Positions 62,204 through 62,533 of a stretch of DNA of 64,000 nucleotides are shown piece after piece. Source of the DNA: Escherichia phage NHEP29. Numbering within the stretch: position 1 is the first letter of the stretch; each line of letters begins with the position of its first letter. The stretch is from the sequence record PQ511150.1; one strand, written 5' to 3'. Under the pieces are notes generated by a model. That model saw only the letters and a list, made by a program, of their open reading frames with translations, had not been told where the DNA came from and did no database searches. The position numbers and the translations under genes were made by a program.

Positions 62204-62473
62204 TTATTTCTGTGCAATTTCGATGTAAGTTTTCAAAATATTTTGCCAATTAGGCATACCTTCTTGGACATATGCTGGGGAACCGTCCTTGTTTTTGAAT
62301 GATGCAAGTTTATCAGTGGCCCAATAACCTTTAGCTCGAGCTTCAGAATCAACTTTCATCCATACTTTGTTGAAGGCATTACCATTAACTTTTGCACCAT
62401 ATTTTTCTACTAACTTAACTGCTTCAGCTTCCAGAACTTTTAAAGTATCTCGTAAGAAACGTGCTTTAGTCAT
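62204..62473 (-). CDS. Hypothetical protein, opposite-strand gene between 23 and 24
   Basis: 89 aa ORF with its own early-type promoter and AGAGGAG SD. Confidence 0.6.
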   Translation of the reverse strand: MTKARFLRDTLKVLEAEAVKLVEKYGAKVNGNAFNKVWMKVDSEARAKGYWATDKLASFKNKDGSPAYVQEGMPNWQNILKTYIEIAQK

Positions 62474-62491
62474 TTTGTTTACTCCTCTGTA

Positions 62492-62533
62492 GTTGATAAG
62501 CCTATAGTATCACATACCAAATACGTTGTAAAC
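62492..62533 (-). promoter_or_regulatory. PeSL-like early promoter
   Basis: GTTTAC, 18 nt, TACTAT, AGGCTTATCAAC on minus strand. Confidence 0.55.

Follow-up and report, generated by a model that had tools for sequence, protein, structure and literature searches.

The slot between the capsid genes 23 and 24 of Escherichia phage NHEP29 carries a small gene that is read against the late capsid cluster, and we regard it as highly probable that this is a genuine early accessory protein gene. The window is the whole stretch of DNA that was analysed (64,000 nt of sequence record PQ511150.1). The explanation as a whole, a monocistronic early gene that interacts with the host and is a regular resident of the 23–24 slot in Mosigvirus and its sister T-even genera, is probably correct. 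The most likely role of the 89 aa product is that of a dispensable early effector which serves host takeover or counter-defence by binding a protein or nucleic acid of the host; that the mechanism specifically consists of host-directed binding is a proposal which we make tentatively.

The window derives from a Mosigvirus (RB69-like T-even phage) and is 99.4–99.6% identical to phage PhAPEC2 over the region. Promoter, ribosome-binding site and ORF form a module of ~340 bp, which fits exactly between the terminator of gene 23 and the late promoter of gene 24 (Table 1). On the opposite strand, the late promoter lies seven bases past the −35 element of the early promoter. The 89 aa minus-strand ORF in this interval, its strong Shine-Dalgarno sequence and its own early promoter, all described in a preliminary account of this DNA, were recovered at or near the positions first assigned to them. 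Downstream of the slot, Gaprivervirus, Dhakavirus and two metagenomic relatives possess two gp24 paralogues in tandem; T4 and the window each have a single gp24 gene. A second place in the window resembles part of the slot. At 42821–42858 the hairpin GGGAGACTTCGGTCTCCC, a copy of the gene 23 terminator in 22 of 23 nt (42821–42843), follows an ORF ending at 42821, and a late promoter TATAAATA (42851–42858) stands immediately behind it, a layout as in the empty 23–24 slot of Tequatrovirus G50. This copy explains the second matching place seen in many records.

Table 1. Features of the gene 23–24 slot and related loci. Positions without a record label are those of the window.
Feature	Position	Strand	Basis or remark
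Gene 23, major capsid protein, left flank	60583..62151	+	522 aa ORF; major capsid annotation in PhAPEC2 (99.6% identical here)
Gene 23 intrinsic terminator, hairpin GGGAGAC-UUCG-GUCUCCC and U-run	62175..62194	+	terminator scan
89 aa ORF, RB69ORF188c/189c family, PHROG 6003	62204..62473	-	ATG start at 62471-62473; ORF list, phrog_6003 match
Shine-Dalgarno sequence GAGGAG	62482..62487	-	read from the sequence; 8 nt 5′ of the ATG
T4-type early (sigma-70) promoter, GTTTACA (−35), 17-nt spacer, TG-extended TACTAT (−10)	62504..62533	-	promoter scan, motif count
Gene 24 late promoter TATAAATA	62540..62547	+	back to back with the early promoter; motif search
Gene 24, capsid vertex protein, right flank	62575..63858	+	427 aa ORF; PhAPEC2 annotation
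Tandem gp24 paralogues	L003 330-2894; L004 336-2899; L008 1337-3901; L023 1338-3897		

The 89 aa ORF is under purifying selection. Compared with PhAPEC2 the gene shows two synonymous and no non-synonymous differences, the two proteins being identical, and compared with S143_2 six synonymous and no non-synonymous differences. The dN/dS ratio was 0.07 for Dhakavirus WG01 versus Mosigvirus LF82-3 and 0.04–0.18 for deeper pairs, with an overall range of 0–0.18. A tblastn search located the ORF in 239 phage records, about 117 of them at ≥95% identity. In 237 of the 239 a single unbroken match covered 80% or more of the protein; this number includes phage mogra, whose match is frameshifted and was assembled from two pieces. 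The phrog_6003 profile matched over its full length (E = 2.1e-45, residues 1–89 against positions 1–90 of 90), and the T-even members of PHROG 6003 are likewise found in the 23–24 interval, reading against the two capsid genes. Across 18 diverse members the N-terminus M-x-K-x-x-F and the motif N-G-N-x-x-N are kept; residues M1, K3, F6, G31, N32, N35 and Q70 are invariant. No paralogue of the 89 aa protein was found within the window.

The databases already contain the gene, the literature covers it in outline, and it is an ordinary annotated resident of the slot. This follows from the annotation of PhAPEC2 and RB69, from PHROG 6003 and from the promoter predictions of Nolan et al. 2006. The RB69 genes RB69ORF188c/RB69ORF189c (NP_861878, NP_861879), PhAPEC2_170, which is annotated as "similar to RB69ORF188c", and PHROG 6003 represent the same gene in the same slot and on the same strand, with the same early promoter predicted in RB69. 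About 240 deposited phage genomes carry it as "hypothetical protein", and the family members of Mosigvirus, Dhakavirus and Gaprivervirus are all hypothetical proteins with no assigned function. The literature search returned no mention of the RB69 protein accession or of PHROG 6003, and 'ORF188c' strings appeared only for other phages (44RR, RB49).

In the RB69 reference sequence the gene, which is intact in the window, is split by indels into ORF189c (29 aa) and ORF188c (41 aa) (L028 3792-4032; NC_004928 109291-109531). The first lesion is a +1 indel that falls within ~18 nt of scrambled sequence, and the second is a −1 indel ~150 nt later; they reflect either a pseudogene of the laboratory strain or an error in the old sequence. 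Phage mogra has lost the frame by deletion of one A from an A5 run, and in 310Ecol104PP a Dhakavirus-type allele is frame-disrupted. These three broken frames indicate that the small gene is dispensable on laboratory hosts. Disruption of the ORF in otherwise near-identical phages, which the preliminary description had named as evidence against its reading, thus occurs, but marginally so: RB69, mogra and 310Ecol104PP are broken, whereas nearly all records (237 of 239, as counted above) keep one match of at least 80% length.

Family members are not confined to T-even phages. Homologues with 33–43% identity to the RB69-type allele are located in arrays of small co-directional genes in the Vequintavirinae phage ABPH49, in two similar metagenomic contigs and in a contig where the gene lies beside a GpJ-like tail gene and a helicase. 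A neighbour-joining tree (89 columns) resolved three well-supported clades, RB69-type, Dhakavirus-type and non-T-even. They are equidistant: the two T-even clades are 0.72 apart, and their distances to the non-T-even clade are 0.65 and 0.73, a pattern that would fit ancient residency with rapid divergence as well as repeated replacement of the cassette. Between Mosigvirus and Dhakavirus-type phages the small protein retains ~33% identity compared with ~85% for the gp23 C-terminus, and hence diverges far faster than its neighbours. A profile search of 1.8 billion representative proteins yielded only about seven true clusters, and a scan of IMG/VR returned only isolate genomes that were already known. 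Two large repeat proteins, P0012 (Big_2-like) and P0016 (with another Ig-like repeat), came up as apparent relatives with whole-sequence E-values of 7e-19 and 4e-9. We rejected both as artefacts of repeat summation, 9–11 repeats contributing 3–14 bits each at per-domain E-values far above 1; the case calls for caution in reading whole-sequence E-values. The 90 aa homologue P0006 (L008 4001-4273) bears the JGI name 'NADPH-dependent curcumin reductase CurA', a clear mis-annotation.

In size, in possession of an early promoter of its own, in variability among relatives and in co-regulation with the early genes, the small gene resembles the generic early accessory 'novel ORFs' of T-even phages (Nolan et al. 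2006); in RB69, 13 of the 57 predicted early promoters precede such ORFs (PMC1524935). Unlike those, which are arranged in early arrays, it stands alone inside the late capsid cluster and is read against it, and unlike those it has homologues in non-T-even phages.

The window protein has a pI of 9.6, and in 17 of 18 family members the pI is 9.2–9.9 and the net charge at pH 7 is +3 to +7. It is hydrophilic, of soluble type and nearly free of cysteine, with no signal peptide and no transmembrane character. AlphaFold2 with an alignment of 18 sequences predicted a compact helix-helix-beta hairpin-helix topology (helix 3–25, helix 31–48, hairpin 52–60/66–70, helix 76–88) at pLDDT 94.1 and pTM 0.79; an earlier model from seven sequences reached a pLDDT of 65 and was left out of the fold search. 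Foldseek matched the predicted fold to nothing in the PDB and, in BFVD, to a family member only. Sequence searches of Pfam, NCBIfam, PADLOC and PDB with the 89 aa protein gave nothing above threshold. The fold and the sequence thus match no structurally characterised family, including the solved phage anti-defence proteins. A DUF4859 match was dismissed as a chance hit (17.9 bits against a cut-off of 22.6; seen in 2 of 18 members, both near-identical). The reported absence of a GIY-YIG motif was borne out, as Pfam contained no nuclease or GIY-YIG domain matching the protein at E-values up to 1. Seg-type GIY-YIG enzymes are ~200–250 aa long and have a C-terminal DNA-binding region, whereas the window ORF encodes one compact domain of 89 aa.

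Early promoter class, dispensability, fast divergence and occurrence in accessory-gene arrays of unrelated coliphages together make an early host-interaction effector the most likely function. The product would be a soluble, basic, non-enzymatic protein that binds stoichiometrically to a host macromolecule, either protein or nucleic acid, and may act as an accessory factor in host takeover or counter-defence. Such a gene would benefit the phage on natural hosts and could be spared on laboratory strains. Two points temper this interpretation. Loss of the gene in laboratory strains is a sign of dispensability and no proof of a defence-related role, and the basic pI would suit a nucleic-acid-binding regulator directed at the phage just as well as a factor directed at the host. 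A phage-directed regulator of this kind, which would control phage transcription, translation or DNA metabolism, is consistent with the basic charge found throughout the family, with the predicted small helix-rich domain containing a beta hairpin and with the predicted early expression. We nevertheless consider it unlikely, since the predicted fold resembles none of those known to bind DNA or RNA, T4 and other Tequatroviruses lack the gene despite their having the same core machinery, and it is broken in RB69, a laboratory phage that grows well.

For a characterization of the promoter we used the early-promoter consensus given in PMC1524935. The sequence at 62504–62533 has the features of a T4-type early promoter, GTTTAC at −36 to −31, a spacer of ~17 nt and a TG-extended TAnnnT, and is oriented 5′ of the ORF with a predicted transcription start near 62497. 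The promoter scan placed the hexamer pair TTTACA-17-TACTAT, with its TG, at 62532..62504 on the minus strand. The motif GTTTAC-N18-TANNNT occurs 13 times in the window compared with 1.0 occurrence expected from shuffled sequences; all 13 are on the minus strand and 12 lie within 1–30 kb, so that the copy at 62504–62533 is the only one in the late-gene half. This enrichment and the bias in strand and position indicate that the element is a member of the phage's early-promoter class rather than a chance pair of hexamers. The 12 other exact matches (window 1–30113, minus strand), most of them with a TG before the −10, mark the early-gene half of the window. For RB69, Nolan et al. 2006 predicted an early promoter, Pe:109605, at the corresponding position with a score of 29.9 in their model (PMC1524935 additional file 3), and a late promoter, Pl:109573, is listed at the position that corresponds to the late promoter of gene 24 (PMC1524935 additional file 5). 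A literature search found no transcriptome of a Mosigvirus or of RB69.

The hexamers of the promoter are kept, with variable spacers, in six T-even lineages besides the window's own, T4 segD included; the −35, the TG and the −10 are conserved in Mosigvirus, Gaprivervirus, Dhakavirus, T4 and three metagenomic lineages. When the upstream regions of the window, VR20, WG01, T4 segD and the three metagenomic lineages were aligned, conserved blocks with freely varying spacers between them became visible. The blocks are the reverse complement of TATAAATA, the −35 element GTTTACA (ATTTACA in T4), the invariant G of the TG and a TAnnAT −10 element. Judged from the promoter class alone, host RNA polymerase would transcribe the small gene during the first minutes after infection.

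On the minus strand, the hairpin of the gene 23 terminator lies 9 nt past the stop codon of the small gene and folds at −19 kcal/mol (z = −5.8). No U-tract follows it in this direction, AAAAUAAG being present instead, and the terminator scan lists the hairpin on the plus strand only. The minus-strand transcript hence has the hairpin of an intrinsic terminator without its U-tract, so that transcription probably either continues into gene 23 in antisense or is terminated by Rho. An Rfam search of the region gave nothing near threshold. Such read-through raises the question of whether the promoter itself is the functional element, producing an early 'anti-late' RNA against the gene 23 message that keeps capsid synthesis off early or leads to RNA decay, with the ORF as a secondary passenger. 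Early anti-late transcripts are known in T4. Besides the missing U-tract, the idea draws on the finding that the first better minus-strand terminator-like site is located only at about 59665, with the number of such sites at chance level, and that the promoter position is kept even where segD replaces the ORF in T4. Against it, the ORF is under strong purifying selection and encodes a conserved, confidently predicted fold, and the non-T-even homologues are not antisense to capsid genes. Moreover, Tequatroviruses with an empty slot lack the promoter, which argues that antisense control of gene 23 answers no conserved need. An RNA function of this kind is therefore improbable, and under the preferred reading, in which the promoter serves to express an early host-interaction protein, antisense transcription into gene 23 would be a side effect and not the promoter's purpose.

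That the corresponding slot of T4 holds segD, as the preliminary description stated, was confirmed in the T4 sequence. This free-standing GIY-YIG homing endonuclease gene occupies the same slot in the same antisense orientation as the window gene. Hence the orientation, contrary to what had been implied, does not set the small gene apart, since segD is likewise transcribed opposite to genes 23 and 24 (our sequence comparison; PMC2988022). The early promoter is not special to the small gene either. On the minus strand of T4 (L006 1733-1761), 5′ of segD, we found TTTACA-17-TATTAT with a TG, a match in 10 of 12 positions that adjoins the late promoter of gene 24 and is positionally homologous to TTTACA-17-TACTAT of the window. 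The whole upstream arrangement agrees, from the reverse complement of the gene 24 late promoter through the −35, the 17-nt spacer and the TG-extended −10 to a similar 5′ leader. The products differ: T4 SegD has ~220 aa and a GIY-YIG domain, the window protein has 89 aa and none, and there is no sequence or domain relationship between them. By blastp, the 89 aa protein showed no similarity to T4 SegD or to the LF82-3 endonuclease. These comparisons suggest that T4 segD has an early-type promoter and would take the place of the small gene downstream of a promoter and leader that it inherited. A 2010 review of T4 mobile elements reported that a segD-specific promoter could not be identified (PMC2988022); as a by-product, the present analysis provides comparative evidence for an early-type promoter 5′ of this gene.

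Comparison across related phages showed that the 23–24 slot is polymorphic, in agreement with the preliminary description, and that it exists in four states. The small gene alone is present in the window, in RB69-type Mosigviruses, in Gaprivervirus VR20, in Dhakavirus WG01 and in the metagenomic T4-like contigs L008, L023 and L025. None of these carriers departs from this slot or from the antisense orientation, and protein identity is 31–71%; the homologues of Dhakavirus, Gaprivervirus and uncultivated T-even phages are at the lower end (31–38%). In Mosigvirus LF82-3 and its relatives the small gene is followed directly by a SegD-like GIY-YIG endonuclease gene behind the same promoter. T4 has segD alone, in antisense orientation. 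The slot of Tequatrovirus G50 is empty, the terminator hairpin abutting the late promoter with neither the ORF nor the early promoter between them.

LF82-3 provides the clearest case of exchange (L005 1810-2739). Its flanks are 95–97% identical to the window, whereas its small protein is 94% identical to that of Dhakavirus WG01 and only 32% to that of the window. By blastn, homology with the window ends exactly at 62207, at the stop codon, and resumes at 62482, at the ribosome-binding site. At the sequence level this is a precise replacement of the coding cassette between conserved regulatory flanks, and these flanks are the boundaries of the replacement. The gene for the endonuclease starts 3 nt after the Dhakavirus-type small-gene allele. 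Its product is 57% identical to T4 SegD, and copies with at least 95% identity occur in 31 records. One swap of this kind brought in both the SegD-like endonuclease and a foreign small-gene allele, a result that co-conversion in endonuclease homing would produce. Co-conversion of flanking markers is an expected by-product of homing (PMC2330249). Judged from the match coordinates, phage SQ17 has the Dhakavirus-type allele apparently without the endonuclease. Again as a by-product, LF82-3 offers a clear-cut case from nature in which a homing endonuclease would have taken an adjacent allele from one genus into another, the junctions lying at regulatory elements.

The association could also mean that the small gene is linked in function to the SegD-type endonuclease, which it might serve as a target or landing site or accompany in transfer, and has no role of its own. 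The close spacing behind a shared promoter in LF82-3 and about 31 or more records, the replacement of the small-gene allele together with the endonuclease, and the position of T4 segD behind a homologous promoter and 5′ leader are all in line with such a tie. Most carriers of the small gene, however, have no endonuclease in the slot (the window, the ~117 RB69-type records, WG01, VR20, L008, L023 and L025), T4 has segD and no small gene, and the non-T-even homologues are not located beside endonucleases. The co-replacement itself is to be expected from homing in any case (PMC2330249). A purely endonuclease-bound role is thus very improbable, and we return to the small gene as an early host-interaction gene in its own right. 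In LF82-3-type phages segD-like and small genes coexist as neighbours, and the idea that the small gene is an alternative to segD cannot be upheld.

The cassette character proposed in the preliminary description is supported by the joint absence of ORF and promoter in G50, by the exchange of the coding segment alone in LF82-3 and by the homologues in unrelated phages. The proposed independent acquisition by this phage is at odds with the distribution of the gene, which is found in about 117 records at ≥95% identity and, in diverged form but with slot and orientation unchanged, also in Gaprivervirus, Dhakavirus and three metagenomic contigs. A foreign origin receives no support from base composition either, the G+C content of the small gene (35.9%) being typical for the phage. 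Finally, the notion that the ORF is no gene but a frame that happens to be open in an intergenic spacer, to which the broken frames of RB69 and mogra and the lack of a known domain might point, is effectively refuted by dN/dS ratios far under 1, by a full-length family spanning several phage groups, by the conserved promoter and ribosome-binding site and by the AlphaFold model (pLDDT 94), and its probability is practically negligible.

Taken further, the 89 aa protein may be the founding member of a structurally orphan family of early effectors, whose alleles would be exchanged as precise cassettes among T-even genera and rV5-like and other coliphages, partly by SegD-type co-conversion, and T4 segD, for a long time taken to lack a promoter, would be an early gene that inherited the promoter of this cassette after loss of the small gene. 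We put this extended scenario forward as speculative and rather doubtful in its entirety.

As it stands, the small gene merely adds to the many annotated hypothetical genes of T-even phages. What is notable beyond that is its orphan predicted fold, the clean endonuclease-linked cassette swap and the predicted promoter of T4 segD. Mosigviruses are widely used as therapeutic and biocontrol phages. With two natural allele classes and natural knock-outs (RB69, mogra) available for comparison, the gene would be of modest importance if its protein proved to be a determinant of host range or anti-defence.
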